64,000 bases of DNA from an uncultured Lentisphaeraceae bacterium (lineage in GTDB: Bacteria; Verrucomicrobiota; Kiritimatiellia; RFP12; UBA1067): the NCBI GenBank assembly GCA_964440985.1, contig CAYTWE010000001.1, forward strand, positions 16,875 to 80,874. The letters are read 5' to 3'. Of the stretch, positions 1,057 to 63,048 are shown piece after piece; the stretch's first letter is position 1; the number at the start of each line of letters is the position of its first letter. Made by a program: the position numbers and the translations under genes. The notes below the pieces were generated by a model. That model saw only the letters and a list, made by a program, of their open reading frames with translations. It was not told the DNA's origin and did not search any database.

Positions 1057-1314
1057 ATACGCAACCTCCAGATTTATCCGCTTGCTGGTATGTCCGCCCA
1101 AACAGGACACACCTGAATGAATGCGTGTATGATATCACAGACCTTTCTAAAAATGCAATTACTGGCTTTTTTTTTTGCCACAAAACTGCGGTATGAGAGC
1201 AAGCGGCAATCATCCAAACCAGATGCGTCGGCATACGCTTCAGCGGCAAAGCGCCATTGCGGCAGCGTCCGCCTGACGAAACAAATGCGCACCGCAAAAT
1301 GCATACGCATTTTT

Positions 1315-5770: not shown

Positions 5771-6859
5771 TCAACTGCGGGAACTGCGCCATTCCCGTGC
5801 GCGGGCACGCGCCTCGCGGTCTATCTCAAAAATGCTCTCCGCCGTATCCGGCTCGTCAGTCGATGCCAGATACGAAACGTCTGCGACAAGTCTCGCGATG
5901 TCGCTGAACCTGATGTCTCCGGCAAGAAACCTCTCGACGGCAATCTCGTCGGCGGCGCTCAGTGCGGCAGGTCTTGCGCCGCCGGCCGCAAGCACATCCT
6001 TTACGAGCCGCAGAGCCGGAAACCGCGTCTCGTCCGGCTTCCTGAACGTAAGCGCACCGATGGCGGCAAGATCAAGCGTCTCGCGTTCCGCCGGAAAGCG
6101 TTTTGGCCATGAAAGCGCGTACTGTATCGGCACCCTCATGTCCGGCGGCGAAAGCTGCGCAAGCGTGGCTCCGTCACGGAACTCCACCAGCGAGTGGACG
6201 ATCGACTCCGGATGCACCACAACGTCTATCCTGTCCGCAGGAATGGAAAAGAGCCATCTGGCCTCTGCAATTTCAAAGCCCTTATTCATCATGCCGGCGG
6301 AATCGACCGTCACCTTCGGTCCCATCTTCCACCTTGGATGCCGCAAAGCCTGCGCCGGCGTGACGTCATCGAGGTTCGCCGGCGCATCAATGAACGGCCC
6401 TCCGCTCGCGGTCAGAATCAGACGCGATACGCTTTCGATTCCGGCACCGCCTTGCAGACACTGGAATATGGCGGAGTGTTCGGAATCAACCGGAACGATC
6501 GTCACGCCGGCGCGTTCTGCGGCCTTGGTGACGAGCGCACCGGCGGCCACAAGCACCTCCTTGGTGGCGAGAGCAACCGTCATCCCCTTGGAAATGGCGG
6601 CAAGCGTCGGCTTCAGTCCGGAAAGCCCCACTGTAGCGACAAGCGCGACGTCGGCCTCATTCTCCTCGATTGCCCGCAATGCACCGTCATCGCCGGAGTA
6701 GACCTTTGCGCCGAACTCCCGGCCAAGGACATCCGCTGCGGCGAGGTTGCTCCTCACCGCAAGCGCGACAATCTTAAACTCGTCCGGATGAGTGCGCACG
6801 ACATCGCACGCACTCGTGCCGATGGAGCCAGTCGCCCCAAGAAGGATTATCCTTTTCAA
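5771..6859 (-). CDS. dxr: 1-deoxy-D-xylulose 5-phosphate reductoisomerase
   Basis: N-terminus MKRIILLGATGSIGTS.. (NADPH-binding) and overall Dxr-like length of 362 aa. Confidence 0.9.
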   Translation of the reverse strand: MKRIILLGATGSIGTSACDVVRTHPDEFKIVALAVRSNLAAADVLGREFGAKVYSGDDGALRAIEENEADVALVATVGLSGLKPTLAAISKGMTVALATKEVLVAAGALVTKAAERAGVTIVPVDSEHSAIFQCLQGGAGIESVSRLILTASGGPFIDAPANLDDVTPAQALRHPRWKMGPKVTVDSAGMMNKGFEIAEARWLFSIPADRIDVVVHPESIVHSLVEFRDGATLAQLSPPDMRVPIQYALSWPKRFPAERETLDLAAIGALTFRKPDETRFPALRLVKDVLAAGGARPAALSAADEIAVERFLAGDIRFSDIARLVADVSYLASTDEPDTAESIFEIDREARARAREWRSSRS

Positions 6860-9647: not shown

Positions 9648-10895
9648 TCAGAAAGCATACGTGAGCGAAAGCCCGGCTGCATGCGAAAGACCATTTTCGG
9701 TATCGAACTTCACCTTCCTGCCGCTCGCCGGGTGCGAGTAGTAGACCGACTCGCCGCACATGAACACAAGACCGTAGCTGAGCGTGACATCAACAGGTCC
9801 GCAATGCCAGGCAAGAGCGAGCGTTCCGATGTGGCGGTCGCCGGGCGGAAGCATGGTAGAGCCGTTGTTGCTGGAGGTGCTGCACGGATCCATGTCAAAC
9901 ACATAGGAACCGAGGAGAGAGAAATTCTCGTGGAAATCCCACGCGCCGCCGAAGCCGATGCGGAAGACGTCATCCCAGCCAAGTTTCGTGGGCTTGCGTC
10001 CGTTCGGAAGATCGAAGTTAATGGCCGGCATCGAAGACCACTCCGTCCAGACCAATGTTGTGCCGAGGTGTACGGTTTCCGTAACATCCCAGTTTGCGCC
10101 TATCGTGACGGACTGCGGAAGGCGGATATCTGCGCTCGCCGTTCCGTTGGCGCTTCTGTTCACCATGCTGTCAAGCGCCCCATTGCCTGAGTTCGCGTGC
10201 ATCGACGCCCTGCCCTTGATTGTGGAATCGATATATGACTTGTACATTGCACCCACCGAGAAGGTATCGGTAATCTTGTAGCGCGTAGAGACCTGCCAGC
10301 CCCAGTCGGAGAAGCTGTTGTCTCCCTTCAGACGGTATCTGCCACGAATATATCCGTATGGCGTCTGTACATACTGGTAGGAACGCTGCTCAAAGTCAAA
10401 GTACAGAAGGCGGAAGCCGGCTGACACAGACCAGTCTTTGGTGATGCTGTACGAGAGGTTTGGCGTAAGCGTAAGCCCGCGCACAGTAGTCTCGATCGTA
10501 TTCCAGTTCATCTCCCAGTCAGGATTGTAATGAGTGCCGAGACCGAACTCAGGTGCAAAGCCGAGACCGAAAGCGAAATCGTAGGGAAGAGGCTGAACGA
10601 GATGGAAGTGCGGAAGCACAAACGCGCCTGGATCCATCTTGCGTCCGTGATGTCCGTCAATCACAGTGTCGGCGGTCGGATGCTCCGTGACGAAACCGAC
10701 GGTCACAATGGTATTCGTGAAATCCGCCATCGTTGCAGGGTTGTAGAAGTTTGCGGACGCATCAACGGCCTTACCCATCACTGCGCCGCCGAGTGCGGTA
10801 CCCTTTGCCGATCCTTCATACAGCGCAAAACCTGCGCCAAACGCCGCTGTCGTCATGACGGAAACCGCCGCCACCATTGCACACGCTATTTTCAT
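9648..10895 (-). CDS. Outer-membrane beta-barrel transporter of the FadL/OmpP1/TodX family (hydrophobic compound / long-chain fatty acid uptake)
   Basis: Signal peptide MKIACAMVAAVSVMTTAAFG. GAGFALYEGSAKGTALGGAV...ANFYNPATMADF is typical of FadL-family N-termini. C-terminal ...LSLTYAF ends in an aromatic residue. Start set at the internal ATG 10895, with AAGGAAGG upstream. Confidence 0.7.
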   Translation of the reverse strand: MKIACAMVAAVSVMTTAAFGAGFALYEGSAKGTALGGAVMGKAVDASANFYNPATMADFTNTIVTVGFVTEHPTADTVIDGHHGRKMDPGAFVLPHFHLVQPLPYDFAFGLGFAPEFGLGTHYNPDWEMNWNTIETTVRGLTLTPNLSYSITKDWSVSAGFRLLYFDFEQRSYQYVQTPYGYIRGRYRLKGDNSFSDWGWQVSTRYKITDTFSVGAMYKSYIDSTIKGRASMHANSGNGALDSMVNRSANGTASADIRLPQSVTIGANWDVTETVHLGTTLVWTEWSSMPAINFDLPNGRKPTKLGWDDVFRIGFGGAWDFHENFSLLGSYVFDMDPCSTSSNNGSTMLPPGDRHIGTLALAWHCGPVDVTLSYGLVFMCGESVYYSHPASGRKVKFDTENGLSHAAGLSLTYAF

Positions 10896-55336: not shown

Positions 55337-56092
55337 ATGGAGAATCCCGCAATGCTGAGCGAAGATGCCGAGGAAACGCTTTTCGATGTGAAGGGTCTGC
55401 GTGTGCGCTACGGCACGATGGAGGCCGTGAAAGGCGTAAGCTTCCACCTTTCACGCAGGGAGACTCTTGGAATAGTCGGCGAATCGGGAAGCGGAAAATC
55501 GACGATCGCGAAAGCACTTGTCGGAATCGAGAAGCCGTCTTCCGGCTCAATCACATGCCGCGCAAAGTCTGTGCAGATGGTTTTTCAGGACGCAGTCGGT
55601 TCGCTGAATCCGCGCATGACAGTGCGGCAGACCCTCCAGGAGGTGCTGAAGATCAAGCGAAACGGAAGGCGCACCGCCCCTGAACTGCTTGACCTGGTTG
55701 GGCTTAGCGCGGCCGTGCTGGAGCAATATCCGCGTGAGATGTCCGGCGGACAGTGCCAGCGCGTGAGCATAGCGCGTGCGCTGGCCTGCGAACCGGAAGT
55801 GCTTATCGCCGACGAACCGGTAAGCGCACTTGACGTGAGCGTACAGGCCCGCATCCTCAACCTGCTGCGGGATCTGCGCCGGAATCTTGGGCTATCCATA
55901 CTGCTCATCGCCCACGATCTCGCCGTCGTGAAAAACGTATGCGACCGCGTATGCGTGATGCAAAACGGAACGTTTGTTGATGCCGGAACATCCGACGAGG
56001 TTTTCAACCATCCGAAGAGCGAATACACGCGACATCTCCTCGACGCCGTGCCGGATGTTGCCCGCGCACTTGCCGGCCGCCGTCCCGCGTGA
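55337..56092 (+). CDS. ABC transporter ATP-binding protein (DppF/OppF-like), with no adjacent permease or binding protein
   Basis: Walker A GESGSGKST, signature LSGGQCQRVSIARAL, Walker B LIADEPVSALD, H-loop IAHDL; first in-frame ATG after the prfA stop. Confidence 0.8.
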   Translation: MENPAMLSEDAEETLFDVKGLRVRYGTMEAVKGVSFHLSRRETLGIVGESGSGKSTIAKALVGIEKPSSGSITCRAKSVQMVFQDAVGSLNPRMTVRQTLQEVLKIKRNGRRTAPELLDLVGLSAAVLEQYPREMSGGQCQRVSIARALACEPEVLIADEPVSALDVSVQARILNLLRDLRRNLGLSILLIAHDLAVVKNVCDRVCVMQNGTFVDAGTSDEVFNHPKSEYTRHLLDAVPDVARALAGRRPA

Positions 56093-56101
56093 CTTCCGTT
56101 T

Positions 56102-56110
56102 TGGTATAAT
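56102..56110 (+). promoter_or_regulatory. Extended -10 TGGTATAAT, 7 nt upstream of the ACP ATG (leaderless geometry)
   Basis: cgttTTGGTATAATgcgccacATG; no SD. Confidence 0.4.
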
Positions 56111-56117
56111 GCGCCAC

Positions 56118-56372
56118 ATGAAAAAAGACGAGTTGTTGAAGCAGATCAGGGATACGCTTGCCGCCGAGTTCGGCTGCGACGCGGCCAAGGTTGTGCCGGA
56201 GGCACGTTTCTTCGAGGATCTTGACCTCGATTCGATCGATGCGGTGGATCTTATCGTGCGTCTCAGGAACGAACATCAGATTGACGTGTCGCCGGACGAT
56301 TTCAAGTCCATCCGCACGATCGGCGATCTCATTGACGTTCTCGAGCGGCTTACGGAAGGCTCAGGCAAGTAG
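56118..56372 (+). CDS. Acyl carrier protein, divergent second copy
   Basis: MKKDELLKQIRDTLAAEFGCDAAKVVPEARFFEDLDLDSIDAVDLIVRLRNEHQIDV.. The DSID serine site lies in a 4-helix ACP frame and is distinct from acpP at 37486-37743. A GCATCCG-cagcgc-CGGATGC hairpin follows the stop codon. Confidence 0.8.
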   Translation: MKKDELLKQIRDTLAAEFGCDAAKVVPEARFFEDLDLDSIDAVDLIVRLRNEHQIDVSPDDFKSIRTIGDLIDVLERLTEGSGK

Positions 56373-56410
56373 ATAACCGAAAGGCATCCGCAGCGCCGGA
56401 TGCATCCGAC

Positions 56411-56758
56411 ATGAATTGCCGAGAGCCAGAACTGCACTCGTGGAACGCCACGGCGGACTCCCTTGCGGCGGAAATGACCTTTCCCCCTGACGGCGAGTGG
56501 TTTGCCGGACACTTCCCCGGATTCCCTGTGCTTCCGGGCGTGGCGCAGCTCTTCTTCACGCGACGTTTCGCCCAGCGCGCATTTCCGGATTTCCCTGACG
56601 CCGCATCGTACCGGCGAATCAAGTTCAAACGGCTGGTGCGTCCAGGCGAACGGGTGCGCCTTGAAGTCCTGAGACGCGGCGCCGGCTCCTTCACGTTCAA
56701 CATGTCCGTGGACGGGGAGATTGCGTCAAGCGGCTCGGTGGAGGGCCTCTCGAAATGA
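56411..56758 (+). CDS. Small hotdog-fold dehydratase subunit (FabZ/FabA-like His motif)
   Basis: GHFPGFPVLPGV (FabZ catalytic-His motif) but no LEAMAQ-type Glu block; 115 aa; ATGA overlap with the next gene. Confidence 0.6.
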   Translation: MNCREPELHSWNATADSLAAEMTFPPDGEWFAGHFPGFPVLPGVAQLFFTRRFAQRAFPDFPDAASYRRIKFKRLVRPGERVRLEVLRRGAGSFTFNMSVDGEIASSGSVEGLSK

Positions 56759-57231
56759 ACGGCATCGCAGGTTCACTCCTTGAACTGCTGCCGCACCGTC
56801 CGCCGATGACGATGCTGTCGGATGTGGTTTCGGTTGACGGACAGGGAAGAGCCGTTGCCGTGGCGGACGTTTCGGAAGATTCAATATTCCACGACTCCGC
56901 CCTTGGCGGCGTACCGGCCTGCGCCGCAGTCGAATACATGGCGCAGACCGTCGCCCTCATTGTCGGCGACAGGCACCGCAGAAGCGGCGAAACGCCTAAA
57001 GTCGGCTTCCTTCTCGGAACAAGAAAACTCGACGTGTCCATTCCTTCATTCAAAAGCGGAACGCGATACGAGGTGACGGCAAACTGCATCTATTCGGATG
57101 ACGAGTTCGCGTCGTTCGACTGCACGATAACCGATCCAGACGGGGCAACTGTCGCATCCGCAACGCTTACGGCGTTTCAGCCGCCGGGCGATCCCGAAGA
57201 GTTTGCCGAGAAAATGAAGGAGCGTGGATGA
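56755..57231 (+). CDS. FabZ-like 3-hydroxyacyl-ACP dehydratase (hotdog fold)
   Basis: N-terminal LLELLPHRPPMTMLSDVV (compare FabZ LPHRYPFLLVD); ..IFHDSALGGVPACAAVEYMAQTVALI (His plus the Glu block); 158 aa. Confidence 0.7.
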   Translation: MNGIAGSLLELLPHRPPMTMLSDVVSVDGQGRAVAVADVSEDSIFHDSALGGVPACAAVEYMAQTVALIVGDRHRRSGETPKVGFLLGTRKLDVSIPSFKSGTRYEVTANCIYSDDEFASFDCTITDPDGATVASATLTAFQPPGDPEEFAEKMKERG

Positions 57232-57279
57232 TCCACATTTCGTACGCGGTTCACGTTCCGCGCATGGAGTTCAATCAAC

Positions 57280-57963
57280 ATGGGAAATGAAAAGAAAGTC
57301 ATCGTGACCGGTTCGAGCCGCGGCATAGGCAAGGCCATTGCCGAAACACTTTCAAAGGCCGGCTACAGCGTCGTCACACATTCCGTAAGATCGGGCGGCA
57401 CCGATCTCGTGTTCGACGTCTCCGACCGCGCAGCAGCAGCAGCGGCGCTCGGCAAGTGGATAGAGGAGAACGGCGCACCGTACGGCGTTGTGCTGAACGC
57501 CGGCATCGCGTGTGACAATGCGTTTCCCGCGATGGAGGATGACGAATGGGATCGCGTCGTCAGGACGGATCTCGACGGATTCTACAACGTCCTCAAGCCA
57601 CTCGTCCTTCCCATGGTGCAGACCCGCGCCCCAGGAAGGATTGTGGTCATCTCGTCCCTCTCCGGCGTGATCGGGAACCGGGGCCAGACCAACTACGCCG
57701 CCGCCAAGGCCGGCGTTATCGGGGCGGCGAAATCGCTGGCGATTGAGCTTGGGAGACGAAACATAACGGTGAACTGCGTCGCTCCGGGCGTCATTGAAAC
57801 TGAAATGACGGAAGCGATTCCCGAAAACGAAGTCAAGAGCGTGATACCGATGCGCCGCTTCGGACGCCCTGAAGAGGTGGCCGCCGCCGTGGAGTTCCTG
57901 CTTTCTGATGGCGCATCGTACATCACACGCCAGGTGCTGCAGGTGAATGGAGGCATGATTTGA
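57280..57963 (+). CDS. 3-oxoacyl-ACP reductase (SDR family, FabG-like)
   Basis: VIVTGSSRGIGKAIAETL (TGxxxGIG), NAG, catalytic S..YAAAKAG (YxxxK); 227 aa. Confidence 0.85.
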   Translation: MGNEKKVIVTGSSRGIGKAIAETLSKAGYSVVTHSVRSGGTDLVFDVSDRAAAAAALGKWIEENGAPYGVVLNAGIACDNAFPAMEDDEWDRVVRTDLDGFYNVLKPLVLPMVQTRAPGRIVVISSLSGVIGNRGQTNYAAAKAGVIGAAKSLAIELGRRNITVNCVAPGVIETEMTEAIPENEVKSVIPMRRFGRPEEVAAAVEFLLSDGASYITRQVLQVNGGMI

Positions 57964-59189
57964 AGCGCAGGGTGGCAATAGTCGGCGAGGGCATCGTAAG
58001 TTCACTCGGACATTCGCCAGATGAGGCGTATTCAAGGCTGAAGACTCTCCGCAACTGCGTGAAGGTGTCGGACGACCTTGCTTCATACAAGGGGCTTCAC
58101 ACGAAGCTGTGGGCGCCGTGCGGATATGTCCGCCCGGCGGAATACACACGCAAGACCATCCGCACGATGAGTCCGGTATCCGAAATGGCGCTCTTTGCGA
58201 CTGAACGCGCATTGGCCGATGCCGGGCTGCTCGAAGACGCCGCCACACTAAAAGGCGGACGGCTCGGCGTGGCGTACGGCTCATGCTCCGGCGGCGTAGA
58301 GGCGAATCTCGACTTCGCAAGCATTCTCGTGAACCGCGAAGTCAAGAACGTCACAAGCTCCACCTACATCAAGATGATGCCGCAGACGACGGCGGTGAAC
58401 CTTTCCGTACATTTCGGAACGACGGGGCGGCTGCTCCCGACGGGGACGGCCTGCACGTCGGGATCGCTCGCCATCGGTGAGGCGTATGAGGCAATCGCCT
58501 ACGACAGGCAGGACATCATGATAGCCGGCGGGGCAGAGGAGTTCTCCGTCACGCAGGTTGCGGTGTTCGACACCCTCTTCTCCGCGTCATGCAAAAACGA
58601 CAAGCCGGAGAACACCCCGTGCGCGTTCGATGTGTCGCGCTCTGGACTTGTCATAGGCGACGGTGCGGCGACGCTCATTCTCGAAGAGATGGAACACGCA
58701 AAGGCGCGTGGCGCAAGAATCATCGCCGAAGTCGTGGGATTCGGACTGAACACCGACGGCCGCCACGTCACCCAGCCAAATGCGGACACCATGTCAAACG
58801 CACTTTCGCTGGCGCTTGAGGATGCCGCCCTGCCGCCGTCCGCAATCGGGTACGTGAACGCCCACGGTACGGCCACAGTGCTCGGCGACATCGCGGAGGG
58901 CACAGCCACCCAACGCGTGTTCGGAAGCGGCAATGTGCCGGTGTCGACGATAAAGAACTACACCGGGCATACCCTCGGCGCATGCGGCGCGATAGAGGCG
59001 ATAATGACCGTGGAGATGATGCGCAACGGATGGTTCGCGCCAAATCTCAACCTTCACGAACCCGACCCGCGATGCGGTGAAAACGACTTCATAATGGGCG
59101 ATGGACGGATGGTTGACGCCGAATACGCGATGTCGGACAACTTTGCGTTCGGCGGCGTGAACACCTCATTGATTTTCAGGCGGATGTGA
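57960..59189 (+). CDS. Beta-ketoacyl-ACP synthase I/II (FabB/FabF-type KAS)
   Basis: Active-site Cys GTACTSGS, His NAHGTATVLGD, His/Lys block NYTGHTLGACGA. TTG start at 57960 overlapping the fabG-like stop. 409 aa. Confidence 0.88.
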   Translation: MKRRVAIVGEGIVSSLGHSPDEAYSRLKTLRNCVKVSDDLASYKGLHTKLWAPCGYVRPAEYTRKTIRTMSPVSEMALFATERALADAGLLEDAATLKGGRLGVAYGSCSGGVEANLDFASILVNREVKNVTSSTYIKMMPQTTAVNLSVHFGTTGRLLPTGTACTSGSLAIGEAYEAIAYDRQDIMIAGGAEEFSVTQVAVFDTLFSASCKNDKPENTPCAFDVSRSGLVIGDGAATLILEEMEHAKARGARIIAEVVGFGLNTDGRHVTQPNADTMSNALSLALEDAALPPSAIGYVNAHGTATVLGDIAEGTATQRVFGSGNVPVSTIKNYTGHTLGACGAIEAIMTVEMMRNGWFAPNLNLHEPDPRCGENDFIMGDGRMVDAEYAMSDNFAFGGVNTSLIFRRM

Positions 59190-59248
59190 AACGCCATGCG
59201 GCGTCGCCCGCATTGATGGCGACAGACAGCAAAGAAAGGACATAACCT

Positions 59249-60643
59249 ATGACGATAATGCAGATGACCGCAATTGCGGCGGTGATGGCGGCGACGGTCG
59301 CATCGGGTCGGCCAGTGCCGCGTCCGGCACTCGTGGAACGCATGGAGAAAGGGCCGAACATCATCGGCATCGTGCATTGGGGACTTAACACCTACTCCGA
59401 CCGCGAATGGGGATACGGGGATGAAGATCCGAAGACACTTGCGCCCTCCGCATTTGACGCAGATCAGATAGTCTCCGCGTGCAAGGATGGAGGAATCGGC
59501 GGGCTTGTCATCGTCGCAAAGCACCATGACGGCTTCTGCCTGTGGCCGACGAAGACGACCGGACACAACATCTCGAAGTCTTCTTTCCGCAACGGCAAGG
59601 GAGACTACGTGAAGGAGATGGAGCAGGCCTGCCGCAGGGCCGGGATCCGCTTCGGCGTGTACGTCTCACCATGGGACCGCAATGCACCGGACTACGCCTC
59701 TCAGTCCTATGTTGAGAAGTATCATGCACAGATCAAGGAACTTCTGAGCGGGGACTATGGCGAGGTGTTCGAAATGTGGTTCGATGGCGCAAACGGCGGA
59801 AACGGCTGGTACGGAGGCGCAAAGGAAGTCCGCAGGATCCCGAACGGCTACTACCGGTTTGACGAGGTGTTCGCATTCGTCCGCGCACTGCAGCCCAAGG
59901 TGTGCATCTTCGCAGGCGAGTATGACGCATCCGATTTCCGCTGGCCGGGCAACGAACGCGGAATGCTCGACCCTGAATCACGTGCGACGATCGAAACCGT
60001 GGGCGGATACGCAAACGGAAAGTACGGCAACCCGAACTACAAGGGGCAGATCAACACCGGCTCTCCTGACGGCACGTTCTTCCGCGTGTGCGAGGCGGAC
60101 TTCCCGATGCGCCCCGGCTGGTTCTACCATGCCAAGGACAAAGGCCGCACCAAGAACGCCGCCTTCCTGATGCAACGCTACCTGACCACCGTCGGCAACG
60201 GCGGCACGATGAACTTGGGCATTGCCCCCAACCGCGAAGGACGACTTGACGACGAGGACGTGAACGCCCTGCGCGGATTCAGCGCACTCCGCAAGGCGTA
60301 CTTCTCCCGTCCGGTCAAGGATGGCAAGGCGAATCTCGCCGTTCTGCGCGAGGACATCTCGAAGGGCGAACAGATAAGCTCATGGAAGATCGTCGCGGGG
60401 GATTCGGTTCTCGCATCGGGGAAGGTCGTAGGCTGTGAACGCATCCGCGCACTTGCCGCCGCGACCGACGTGGCCCGAATCTCCCTCAAGACCGAGGGTG
60501 GCGACGTAAAGTCGGCTGAATACTACAACGTAGATCCGGAACTCGTCGAGCTTGTCGCGAACGCGACGGCAGAGGGCGGAGAGACGGATACGGCCAAGTG
60601 GATGACCGGCGCCGCAAAGGAGCCTGCCAGTTCACGGAAGTGA
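59249..60643 (+). CDS. Secreted alpha-L-fucosidase (GH29)
   Basis: VIVAKHHDGFCLWPT (GH29 nucleophile-region motif), signal-like N-terminus, RBS AAAGAAAGGA; 464 aa. Confidence 0.8.
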   Translation: MTIMQMTAIAAVMAATVASGRPVPRPALVERMEKGPNIIGIVHWGLNTYSDREWGYGDEDPKTLAPSAFDADQIVSACKDGGIGGLVIVAKHHDGFCLWPTKTTGHNISKSSFRNGKGDYVKEMEQACRRAGIRFGVYVSPWDRNAPDYASQSYVEKYHAQIKELLSGDYGEVFEMWFDGANGGNGWYGGAKEVRRIPNGYYRFDEVFAFVRALQPKVCIFAGEYDASDFRWPGNERGMLDPESRATIETVGGYANGKYGNPNYKGQINTGSPDGTFFRVCEADFPMRPGWFYHAKDKGRTKNAAFLMQRYLTTVGNGGTMNLGIAPNREGRLDDEDVNALRGFSALRKAYFSRPVKDGKANLAVLREDISKGEQISSWKIVAGDSVLASGKVVGCERIRALAAATDVARISLKTEGGDVKSAEYYNVDPELVELVANATAEGGETDTAKWMTGAAKEPASSRK

Positions 60644-60656
60644 CCGGCTGAGCGAT

Positions 60657-60693
60657 GCGGGGATCGCGCATATTCCTGATTCGCGATCCCCGC
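60657..60693. promoter_or_regulatory. Perfect 12-bp inverted repeat hairpin (GCGGGGATCGCG-N13-CGCGATCCCCGC) immediately after the fucosidase stop codon, with no U-tract
   Basis: Seen directly in sequence. Could be a terminator-like stabiliser or a protein-binding palindrome. Confidence 0.4.
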
Positions 60694-60855
60694 GCAACCG
60701 TCACCTTCCCGCATCGGTACGAACACGGCGTACCGCAGCCTTCCATCGAACAGCCGAACAGCAAGGCGGCAACACAGAGGGCAATCAATGCCGCTGATGC
60801 CATGCACCTTTGCGATGAGTGTTCTCATGCCGCGAATTATCTGAAATCCAGATTG

Positions 60856-60888
60856 CGGCAACATTGTCCCCACATTGCCATTTGGCAA
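60856..60888 (+). repeat. Copy A of a nested-dyad motif: GCGGCAACATTG tcccca CATTGCCATTTGGCAA
   Basis: Contains TTGCCA-tt-TGGCAA (a perfect 6-2-6 dyad) and an upstream GGCAA-ca-TTGTC half-dyad. 16/16 identity to copy B over CATTGCCATTTGGCAA. Confidence 0.6.
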
Positions 60889-60904
60889 GCAGGACAACAT
60901 CACG

Positions 60905-60936
60905 AAAAACGCATCTGGCAAGCGGCAGCTTGCGCG
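60905..60936 (-). terminator. Putative terminator after the HAD hydrolase gene
   Basis: Minus strand: GCAAGC tgcc GCTTGC, then 8 nt, then TTTTT. Weak because of the long stem-to-U spacing. Confidence 0.35.
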
Positions 60937-60944
60937 ACACGGCG

Positions 60945-61595
60945 TCACTCTTCCGGCTTGAGGTAGCGCAGAAGTTCGTCAAAGCGGCGAAGCTTGACGG
61001 TGCAGCGGCTTTCGTTCAGCCGCCCGAAACCGAACGAGCAGAACGCAGTCTTGATTCCGGCGGCACACCCGCTCTCCATGTCCGTCCAGTTGTCGCCCAC
61101 CATCCAGTCGTGAGCCGACAGTCGATGCCCGCGCATACGCGCTGCGCACTCGCGGAGCGGAAGCCCCGACGGTTTCATCTCGGCGCAATCACCGCCGGCA
61201 ACGACGGCATCGCCGAAATACTGCAGGATCCCGTAATGAGACAGCAGGTCTCTTGCGGCGAAATTTGGCTTGTTGGTGTTTACGCCCATGAGCCAGCCGC
61301 GATCCGCAAGTTCCGCAAGCGTCCGGCGGACGCCCGGATAAAGCACCGTCTCGTCTGTCATGTGGGCGCGGTAGTTCGCGCTGAACATTGGCCAAAGTTC
61401 ATCAAACCTTCCGGCGATTTCGGGGATTGCGTTTTCAAGAAGATGCCTTGCACCGCACCCTACGAAACCGATGACGGACTCCTGCGGCAGTGTACACAGT
61501 CCAAGATCCCTGCGTGTGTAGTTCACGGCATTCGCAAGATCAGCCCGCGAATCGAAAAGCGTACCGTCCATGTCGAAAAATACGGCGTTCATCAT
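60945..61595 (-). CDS. HAD-superfamily hydrolase (phosphoglycolate-phosphatase-like, subfamily IA)
   Basis: Motif I FFDMDGTLFDS, motif III/IV ..MVGDNWTDMESGCAAGI. Start at ATG 61595 (MMNAVFF); the track start is a TTG at 61610. No clear SD. Confidence 0.7.
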   Translation of the reverse strand: MMNAVFFDMDGTLFDSRADLANAVNYTRRDLGLCTLPQESVIGFVGCGARHLLENAIPEIAGRFDELWPMFSANYRAHMTDETVLYPGVRRTLAELADRGWLMGVNTNKPNFAARDLLSHYGILQYFGDAVVAGGDCAEMKPSGLPLRECAARMRGHRLSAHDWMVGDNWTDMESGCAAGIKTAFCSFGFGRLNESRCTVKLRRFDELLRYLKPEE

Positions 61596-61786
61596 GTTGC
61601 TGCGAGGCAAACCAGCCGCCTGAATCGGCGACCCATCTGCCTTTTGCTCCTTGTTTCTGTCTGCTGCTCCACAAACCAGCCACGTTCGCCGCTGCGCACG
61701 GTGCGGTCAGTGAACGCGGATTATAGCAGAAACGCCAAACCGTCCGCAAACCGCCTCCGGCATACGGCATCTGTCGGCGACATACG

Positions 61787-62020
61787 TCACGATTCCGACG
61801 CCGGAATCGCAGACCATGCGGCGCGGCGGGACGTCATGGCTATGCGCACTGCCTCTGCCTTGCCGACGTTCACCGGAAGATAAAGTGCACGGATGGACGG
61901 CGATTCCCGTTCGAGAAATGCCAGCATCTCAGCCGTTGAATCCGCGAATCCGTCATCGACGAACTGGAGCCTCAAGCCCAACGTGCACCGTTTGATGAAT
62001 TTGACATTGGACCTCTTCAT
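61787..62020 (-). pseudogene. Remnant of a family-2 glycosyltransferase (N-terminal ~75 aa only)
   Basis: LQFVDDGFADSTAEMLAFLERESPSIRALYLPVNVGKAEAVRIAM matches the GT2 head (VDDGS.D.T..h...., then R..GK..A...G). The ORF then terminates; only ~175 nt remain before the next gene, so the catalytic DxD half is absent. Confidence 0.4.
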
Positions 62021-62094
62021 GCAAGGAACAGCAAGAAGCGGCCACGGAAGAGCCATGCCGCGAAGTATGTTCGCCGTACATGACTGGGACATTG

Positions 62095-62116
62095 CCGCAA
62101 CATTGCCATTTGGCAA
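62095..62116 (+). repeat. Copy B of the nested-dyad motif: CCGCAACATTGCCATTTGGCAA, preceded by another CATTGCC at 62090-62096
   Basis: CGCAA-ca-TTGCC-att-TGGCAA: two overlapping inverted repeats sharing the central TTGCCA. Same orientation as copy A, 1.24 kb downstream of it. Confidence 0.6.
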
Positions 62117-62140
62117 TCCTCCGGCAGGTTGAGATGCGCC

Positions 62141-62169
62141 TTGACCCGTGATTCGCCTTTCGGTATATT
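62141..62169 (+). promoter_or_regulatory. Sigma70-like promoter for the patatin gene (TTGACC-N17-TATATT)
   Basis: ccTTGACCcgtgattcgcctttcggTATATTgcg. The copy-B dyad centre lies about 66 nt upstream of the predicted TSS. The 5'UTR is about 78 nt, with GGAGGAG at 62241-62247. Confidence 0.45.
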
Positions 62170-62253
62170 GCGCACACATCGGCATTGAAACGGCCTGCTC
62201 AGGGTGTTCCGACAGGACGCAGAAGCAGGTTAGGTTCAGCGGAGGAGCGGACA

Positions 62254-63048
62254 ATGGGAAAAAGGATAGGATTGGCTTTAGGCGGCGGCGGTGCGCGTGG
62301 GCTTGCGCATCTCGGCGTGTATGAACGCTTGACCGAACTGGGCATACCGCTGCATTGCATAGCCGGAACGTCCATAGGCGCAATCGCCGGTGCAATCATC
62401 GCCTCTGGGAACGTCGGAAAGGCGCTTGACTGGTGCAACGCACCGGACTGGAAGAAATTTCCGGGGCTGATGCTTGAAACGCATTTCACGGCGAAAGCCA
62501 TAACATCCGGAAGAAGGATCGAGCGGCTTCTTGCCGAACTTATCGTGGTTCAAAGTTTTGACGGCCTGAACCTTCCATTTGGTGCTGTGGCGACAGATCT
62601 GAACACTGGTGACGAGGTGGTGATGCGCGATGGGGATCTGCTTTCGGCGGTCCGCGCCTCCATATCCATTCCGGGTGTGTTTCTCCCGGTGGAGCGCAAC
62701 GGACGTGTGCTGATCGACGGACAGATAGTGAATCCCGTACCGGTGTCGGTGTGTCGTGCGATGGGGGCTGACATCGTCATTGCAGTGGACATCAATCCTC
62801 CGAATCCGCCGTCTGGGGCCAGGCCTCTCGACAGGCTCAGCATAATAGACATCATAAGCGGTACGTTCACCATCCTGAACTGCGAACTTACGAAGCGTGT
62901 GCTTTCAGAGAATCCGCCCGACGCTCTGATACGTCCGGCCGTAGGCGGCGTGATGGCACTCGACTTCCGCCATGCCGAGCGTCTTGTCGAGATCGGGCGG
63001 CAGTCGGTTGACGACAGGATCGCGGCTGAACTGCTTGCCCTGCTCTAA
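62254..63048 (+). CDS. Patatin-like phospholipase (RssA/YchK type)
   Basis: GLALGGGGARGLAHLGV (oxyanion G-G-G-x-R/K-G), GTSIGAIAG (GxSxG nucleophile), DGGxxxNxP-like IDGQIVNPVP (Asp dyad partner). Start at ATG 62254 with GGAGGAG upstream. Confidence 0.85.
   Translation: MGKRIGLALGGGGARGLAHLGVYERLTELGIPLHCIAGTSIGAIAGAIIASGNVGKALDWCNAPDWKKFPGLMLETHFTAKAITSGRRIERLLAELIVVQSFDGLNLPFGAVATDLNTGDEVVMRDGDLLSAVRASISIPGVFLPVERNGRVLIDGQIVNPVPVSVCRAMGADIVIAVDINPPNPPSGARPLDRLSIIDIISGTFTILNCELTKRVLSENPPDALIRPAVGGVMALDFRHAERLVEIGRQSVDDRIAAELLALL

Follow-up and report, generated by a model that had tools for sequence, protein, structure and literature searches.

A repeated box in an uncultured Lentisphaeraceae bacterium as a probable response-regulator operator of leaderless-type promoters

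Two-component regulators of the OmpR family offer the closest described parallels to the element analyzed here, a 28-nt box that occurs twice in a 64,000-nt stretch of DNA from an uncultured Lentisphaeraceae bacterium (contig CAYTWE010000001.1; the whole stretch is called the window below). In Enterobacteria, PmrA (BasR) and PhoP control the arn (pbgP) operon for lipid A modification. In class II activation of the PhoB type, the pho box replaces the -35 element of the promoter. CusR-type regulators bind perfect 6-nn-6 palindromes between divergent operons and have very restricted regulons, and their boxes can drive both of the divergent promoters (PMC11195947). The "copper box" operators of CusR and CopR read AAAATGACAAnnTTGTCATTTT in E. 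coli and ATTCATnnATGTAAT in Pseudomonas paraeruginosa (PMC11195947). Judging from comparative sequence analysis, the box in the window is probably an operator for a response regulator, placed on activator-dependent promoters of leaderless type, and its two copies there would be relics that head deleted genes. For the uncultured Kiritimatiellota and Lentisphaerota of gut and rumen, such an operator provides a cis-regulatory motif that can be tested, a regulon with two promoters, and a candidate for its regulator. No curated regulon is known to us from either phylum, and a literature search on their regulons found nothing relevant.

The likeness to the copper boxes lies first in form and setting. 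The box is a 6-nn-6 palindrome, it often sits between divergent operons of which one carries a two-component system, and its regulons are very small, with one or two sites. The neighboring regulator has the heavy-metal subfamily as its best family match, and the variant of the box found in one relative (L046), TGACGAaaTGGTCA, shares 10 of 12 positions with the E. coli core TGACAAnnTTGTCA. The window half-site, TGGCAA, agrees with that core at only 6 of 12 positions, however, and a third, direct half-site follows one helical turn downstream. Moreover, the targets are not metal efflux or oxidase genes but a module of an ArnT-family glycosyltransferase (ArnT), a family 2 glycosyltransferase (GT2), and a lipoprotein resembling protein tyrosine phosphatases (PTP), and the promoters are leaderless-type. 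The regulator scores below the subfamily cut-off, and any link to metals would be hypothetical.

The arn system offers a second parallel, in which an OmpR-family two-component regulator again stands over an ArnT-family transferase and a GT2 (ArnC-like), and hexamer half-sites at 11-bp spacing adjoin the -35 region. BasR itself is among the solved homologs of the candidate regulator. Yet ArnT is matched only weakly (91 bits, with the equivalog cut-off at 567), arnA, arnB, and arnD genes are missing, the PTP-like lipoprotein belongs to the module, and the sequence of the box is unrelated to PmrA or PhoP boxes. Promoters of the PhoB class II type are similar in having no -35 element, a weak -10, and tandem half-sites with an 11-bp period abutting the -35 position. 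They differ in that the proximal half-site of the box ends 19 nt before the -10 rather than ~10 nt, that there is an extra inverted half-site, and that the mRNA would be leaderless-type.

The box and its promoter position

An earlier note on the window described a 16-nt exact repeat in direct orientation. The sequence CATTGCCATTTGGCAA is indeed identical at 60873-60888 and 62101-62116, and the exact match in fact covers 17 nt (ACATTGCCATTTGGCAA, at 60872-60888 and 62100-62116). Length alone is weak evidence, because five 16-mers are directly repeated in the window, with ACATTGCCATTTGGCAA as the sole directly repeated 17-mer. Allowing 2-3 mismatches, we found no further copies of the 16-mer in the 64 kb beyond chance-level matches. 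The repeat owes its significance instead to an ungapped match of 25 out of 28 nt (60861-60888 against 62089-62116), to an in-register block, CATGCCGCGAAnTAT, at which similarity resumes 19 nt beyond the box, and to a fixed promoter position across many species. Overall, the two copies remain in register for ~62 nt, up to a minus-strand ATG in both. They lie 1228 nt apart, and ten Logan contigs from other samples (L001-L010) encode an identical patatin protein with the same layout and repeat spacing, so the structure is not an assembly artifact. A single base change in copy A of L006 (~8622), which turns GGCAATGT into GGCAATGC on the minus strand, is the only variant of the box among eleven strains or samples.

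Read on the minus strand, both copies have the form TTGCCAAATGGCAATGT-N5-CAATGT, N19, (G/C)ATA(A/C)T, TCGCGGC, ATG. The 28-nt core of copy B (62089..62116, minus strand) is TTGCCAAATGGCAATGTTGCGGCAATGT, which comprises the dyad TTGCCA-AA-TGGCAA and two direct GGCAATGT repeats 11 nt apart, and that of copy A (60861..60888, minus strand) is TTGCCAAATGGCAATGTGGGGACAATGT. Both contain two ACATTG units at a distance of 11 nt, and their alignment has no gaps; the 11-nt internal duplication once ascribed to copy A is an artifact of a gapped reading. GGCAAkGT repeats at this 11-nt spacing, which is helical, also recur in the orthologous promoters, and the dyad is retained in 85% of cells. Downstream of copy B, the -10-like hexamer CATACT (62064..62069, minus strand) precedes the ATG at 62054..62056 (minus strand) by 7 nt, with no Shine-Dalgarno motif after it, an arrangement of leaderless type. 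Downstream of copy A, the hexamer GATAAT (60836..60841, minus strand) likewise stands 7 nt before a minus-strand ATG.

To place the two copies among their relatives, orthologous contexts were gathered by a search with the ArnT protein of L011, the sister genome described in the next section. Thirteen promoters from at least nine species share a single architecture, TTGCCAAATGGCAATGT-N5-CAAkGT, 19 nt, TAnAnT, 7 nt, ATG, without a Shine-Dalgarno motif, and these promoters belong to both ArnT orthologs and standalone PTP genes. The end of the box is 32 nt from the ATG and 19 nt from TAnAnT in 12 of the 13; in L021 the same box lies one base nearer the ATG, at 31 nt. The box is in register at every ArnT ortholog with 57-86% identity (L021, L022, L025, L026, L028, L029, and L044), and reads TTGCCAAATGGCAATGTTGCGGCAAGGT in L026, TTGCCAAATGATAATGTTCGTTCAAGGT in L028, TTACCAAATGGTATAGTTACGGCAATAT in L025, TGACCAAACGGCAATGTTTCGACAAGGT in L022, and TGGCCAATTGGTCATGTTGGCACAAGGT in L044. 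The ArnT promoter of L029 contains two tandem operator units (9919-9968), the distal one with TT rather than AA as its central dinucleotide, and a diverged version of the box keeps the register at ArnT in L046. Standalone PTP homologs (L039-41 and L042/43; 58-61% identity) show the same box, -10, and register, and their spacers are recognizably related to that of copy A. Alignment A2 shows variation in the spacers but none in TAnAnT, the ATG, or the box positions, and what lies on the other side of the box in the other species is a different gene each time. Finally, PTP directly follows GT2 in L025, L044, and L046 and has no box of its own there. We infer a single ancestral operon, with a copy of its promoter driving PTP wherever the gene stands apart.

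The box also proved specific in broader scans. A position weight matrix (PWM) built from the first nine sites scores copy B at 44.7 and copy A at 39.9, and over 314 kb of related loci it matched solely at ArnT and PTP promoters. A more distant ArnT homolog (L047, 47% identity) stands in a different gene context without the box, which is therefore specific to one ortholog group. A metagenome scan with the full 23-base pattern gave no match. A second metagenome scan returned eight matches, seven of which look like chance (GC 27-67%, no in-register ATG), leaving L033 as the only convincing one. Its box (1170-1197, minus strand; contig GC 53%) is flanked by a divergent response-regulator gene and by a gene for a 269-aa acidic secreted protein, and may be a further member of the regulon or an autoregulatory site. 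On this comparative evidence, we regard the window copies as two conserved promoters of one regulon rather than a local accident.

Several features of these promoters point to transcription that depends on an activator. In the -10-like hexamer, A2 and T6, which are the sigma-70 -10 positions, are invariant, as is A4. No -35 hexamer is recognizable in the box promoters, where the proximal half-site occupies ~-40 to -33, and none of the 13 has a GGAG-like Shine-Dalgarno motif, the distance from TAnAnT to the ATG being 7 nt (6 nt in L021). Other genes in the window also show TGnTATAAT 6-8 nt before the ATG and lack a Shine-Dalgarno motif (1331, plus strand; 3914 and 63755, minus strand). The same leaderless-type pattern is found at L026 6854-8050 and 12022-12702, at L029 7535, 12031, and 14821, and at L046 10784 (11 nt in that case), and the genes concerned in these three contigs include regulator and kinase genes. 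Leaderless transcription thus seems to be normal in these bacteria. Compared with the other leaderless-type genes, the ArnT and PTP promoters have a weaker -10 and mostly lack the TG extension, which fits dependence on an activator at the box. The pattern suggests that promoters both leaderless and activator-dependent are in regular use in these phyla. Two other promoter classes were considered and set aside. TGGCA and TTGC motifs do occur, but read from the sequence they are not spaced as in the sigma-54 pattern TGGCAC-N5-TTGC on either strand. An extracytoplasmic-function (ECF) sigma promoter does not agree with the sigma-70-like -10 (TAnAnT) and the 19-nt distance from box to -10.

Intact partners in a sister genome and their loss from the window

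The genes that the box serves are best seen in L011, a Lentisphaeraceae species-representative metagenome-assembled genome whose DNA is ~92% identical to the window (blastn) and whose patatin protein is 95% identical. Over the fucosidase-patatin interval, L011 keeps both copies of the repeat, spaced by 2949 nt as against 1228 nt in the window, and its minus strand carries, in order, box B, ArnT, GT2, HAD, box A, and PTP, with all genes intact. The gene 60 nt downstream of copy B encodes a 411-aa ArnT/PMT-family glycosyltransferase and is followed by an intact 251-aa GT2 and then by the HAD gene. Copy A lies 60 nt upstream of an intact lipoprotein gene with the HCX5R tyrosine-phosphatase motif (HCKLGRDR), the homologs of which match Y_phosphatase3 (PF13350). 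We favor an operator because the two copies align without gaps from box to ATG and because both precede intact genes in L011. The earlier suggestion of a shared regulator site stands as far as the conserved operator-type box is concerned, and fails in its choice of partners, which are the minus-strand ArnT operon and the PTP gene, not patatin.

Compared with L011 by blastn, the window has suffered three deletions, which destroyed PTP, GT2, and ArnT. The first, with its junction at 60664-60672 within PTP, removed the equivalent of L011 6090-6692, the ends of which share the microhomology TCnnGCATA. Of the PTP-like (Y_phosphatase3) lipoprotein gene it left a 5' remnant (60673..60828, minus strand; ATG at 60826-60828) that is additionally frameshifted by a 2-nt deletion, although its lipoprotein signal peptide is still legible. 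The second junction (61834..61849) lies within GT2, where L011 7884-8341 is gone and the ends share CTnTGCGCAC. At the third site (61977..62053), 77 nt replace ~1.3 kb of L011 (8484-9805), that is, the ArnT-family gene. What survives is an open reading frame of 89 codons (61787..62056, minus strand), in which the GT2 remnant has been joined to the ATG at 62054..62056, the codon that starts the ArnT-family gene in L011; of the intact 251-aa GT2, ~75 N-terminal and ~15 C-terminal codons are left.

These comparisons refine how the interval had been described. The assignments of the fucosidase, HAD, GT2-remnant, and patatin genes hold by Pfam, with a weak match for GT2 (20.6 bits, below the Pfam cut-off). 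GT2 is damaged, as the earlier note had it, but by an internal deletion rather than by truncation to ~75 codons, and the whole ArnT-family gene is gone as well. Copy A does lie between the fucosidase and HAD genes, in an interval that is not empty but contains the PTP remnant.

The operator cores, meanwhile, have not changed. Each is identical between the window and L011 at 28 of 28 positions (56/56 in total), compared with 133/169 on the copy B side and 78/88 on the other in the rest of the intergenic DNA (79-89%). All three deletions struck box-driven genes and spared HAD, and microhomology is found at the ends of two of them. Together they look like the coordinated loss of a regulon, which would be indirect evidence that PTP, GT2, and ArnT work together. 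The HAD gene itself (60945..61595, minus strand) is intact and phosphoglycolate-phosphatase-like by its Pfam and NCBIfam matches. It is probably driven by a promoter of its own, read from the sequence as the extended -10 TGcTATAAT at 61719..61727 (minus strand), ~120 nt upstream, and this promoter is probably constitutive. Because relatives such as L025, L044, and L046 have no HAD, the gene may have joined the ArnT-GT2-PTP cluster later.

Across the first deletion junction lies a GC-rich, perfect 12-bp palindrome (60657..60693), GCGGGGATCGCG, a 13-nt loop, and CGCGATCCCCGC, 14 nt past the stop codon of the fucosidase gene. The L011 counterparts of its arms are far apart and ~7/12 complementary, and both window arms differ from them in ways that favor perfect pairing; the palindrome may be a terminator selected once the deletion had occurred. 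The 3' end of PTP is unusual in L011 as well. There, the PTP frame meets a stop codon only after overlapping the convergent fucosidase gene by 158 nt at its 3' end (5903-6060), and it reaches 318 codons, compared with ~267 in homologs, which reflects either an unusually long convergent overlap or the loss of a stop codon.

A candidate regulator and a proposed mechanism

A regulator can be proposed from the genes that accompany the box. In four contigs, an OmpR-family response regulator and a histidine kinase adjoin the box-driven operon. The order is ArnT, GT2, response regulator, kinase in L028 and ArnT, GT2, PTP, response regulator, kinase in L046. In L029 the pair lies a few genes downstream of the box-driven operon, and in L026 it belongs to a divergent operon that shares its intergenic region with the box. 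These neighboring regulators are 66-77% identical to one another and 36-38% identical to a second L026 regulator. L033 adds a fifth context, in which 188 nt separate the box from the start of a divergently oriented regulator gene that begins MRLLLIEDDRKIAAFVSKGF. The regulator belongs to the OmpR family by Pfam and by homology to proteins in the PDB, where its solved homologs include PhoP, PrrA, MtrA, and BasR, and its best NCBIfam match is the heavy-metal CusR/CopR subfamily (TIGR01387).

We therefore propose the following scheme, in conditional terms. Each copy of the box would be the control region of one minus-strand gene. Its 28-bp operator, at ~-60 to -33, would combine the dyad TTGCCA-nn-TGGCAA with a pair of GGCAAkGT half-sites that are separated by one helical turn. 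With a weak -10 (TAnAnT) only 7 nt before the ATG, the promoter would need an activator and the mRNA would be leaderless or nearly so. The activator is most likely a phosphorylated, CusR-like response regulator of the OmpR/PhoB family, which, bound adjoining the -35 position, would recruit RNA polymerase. Its small regulon would comprise the ArnT-family glycosyltransferase, a GT2 that is polyprenyl-phosphate glycosyltransferase-like, and the PTP-like lipoprotein phosphatase, which we take to form an envelope-modification module. The position of HAD between GT2 and PTP, with PTP having its own copy of the promoter and operator, would account for the "direct repeat." Three microhomology deletions and a frameshift have destroyed PTP, ArnT, and GT2 in the window species, leaving both copies at the head of dead genes.

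A wider scenario is quite possible, and we put it forward tentatively. In Kiritimatiellota and Lentisphaerota, a CusR-like two-component system may have been re-targeted from metal efflux to an envelope regulon (ArnT-family, GT2, and PTP-like lipoprotein) by way of activator-dependent leaderless promoters, as its operator drifted from TGACnA-nn-TnGTCA to TTGCCA-nn-TGGCAA. The whole regulon would have decayed in the window species, where the orphan operators may still influence the patatin promoter.

A number of observations weigh against a CusR-like activator acting at the box. The perfect conservation of boxes whose targets are dead requires either that the deletions be recent or that the boxes retain a residual role. 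The regulator scores 246 and 239 bits against TIGR01387, below the curated cut-off of 279. By tblastn, no response-regulator or kinase gene is present in the window, L001, or L011 (~72 kb), so the link for the window genome comes from its relatives only, and the regulator of that genome may have been lost. About half of the contexts (L025, L039, L044, and L011) have no regulator gene nearby, and no box precedes the separate regulator gene of L029, which has its own promoter. Within the box, conservation is lowest in the left half-site (L022 and L029). Symmetric changes in the dyad are not statistically above shuffled controls, 34 of 500 shuffles reaching the observed covariation score.

Competing explanations

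Some of these same points would suit an operator that is real but bound by another transcription factor, possibly a repressor, an alternative we consider unlikely. Regulator genes are absent near about half of the contexts and no ortholog of the regulator occurs in the window, and a dyad with a 2-nt spacer would serve many helix-turn-helix dimers. Nevertheless, an orthologous regulator adjoins the box in five independent contexts, one of which is the uninterrupted row ArnT-GT2-PTP-response regulator-kinase, and the 11-nt period of the half-sites together with the 6-nn-6 dyad fits sites of the OmpR and CusR types. The repressor variant is further disfavored by promoters without a -35 element, which argue for activation.

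Less probable still is a role for copy B as a class-I activator site of the plus-strand patatin promoter, in which the two copies would define a regulon that includes patatin. The promoter itself, TTGACC-N17-TATATT (62141..62169, plus strand), was correctly recognized as the only sigma-70-like match within 60400-62400, and it serves a patatin-like phospholipase gene (62254..63048, plus strand) with a GGAGG Shine-Dalgarno motif upstream. It is kept in L011, and the center of the box falls ~66 nt upstream of the start predicted from it; furthermore, CusR-type boxes are able to drive both divergent promoters (PMC11195947). Against this, copy A has no plus-strand gene downstream, and the patatin promoter, which stands outside the conserved box architecture, has a near-consensus -35 of the kind that needs no activator. 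Patatin orthologs in L012 and L013 (64% identity) lack an exact copy of the box core and any synteny, and in L012 a Fic-like gene lies upstream of patatin instead. At least nine other species, on the other hand, keep the box in register with the ArnT or PTP start while the gene on its far side varies. The pairing of patatin and box is a feature of this lineage only, where copy B may have an additional effect on the divergent promoter.

A dispersed repeat of the repetitive extragenic palindromic (REP) type, or a transcribed RNA hairpin or leader, is very improbable. The short dyad could form a 5-bp stem, but the consensus fold (RNAalifold) contains only that stem, at -3.2 kcal/mol, its covariation is not significant, and Rfam has no match to it, the only hit being a chance miRNA match elsewhere (E = 0.058). 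Because the box precedes the -10-like hexamer, it probably does not form part of the transcript. As for dispersal, which the earlier note had named as the outcome that would speak against a regulatory site, the element has two copies in 64 kb and occurs only at ArnT and PTP promoters across the 314 kb of related loci.

Being short, intergenic, and in direct orientation around 1.2 kb with a damaged gene, the two copies do recall attachment (att) sites, as had been suggested, or the target-site duplications that an insertion or deletion of the HAD/GT2 segment would leave. This origin is refuted for practical purposes because the repeats lie at no deletion junction (60664-60672, 61834-61849, and 61977-62053 are all away from them) and because L011 carries both around an undamaged 2.9-kb segment; single copies, moreover, precede ArnT or PTP genes at a fixed distance from the start codon in many species, and no integrase, transposase, or recombinase is found among the Pfam-scanned or called genes around the repeats. 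A direct repeat that flanks a broken gene can thus be a duplicated promoter rather than the scar of a mobile element.

Beyond the operator-type box and its partners, one neighboring gene set deserves mention. The fucosidase gene is directly preceded by an aryl-polyene-like lipid cluster (window ~56000-59200; L001 3802-6936), which encodes an acyl carrier protein, ApeI-like and ApeP-like dehydratases, a FabG-like reductase, and a ketoacyl synthase.

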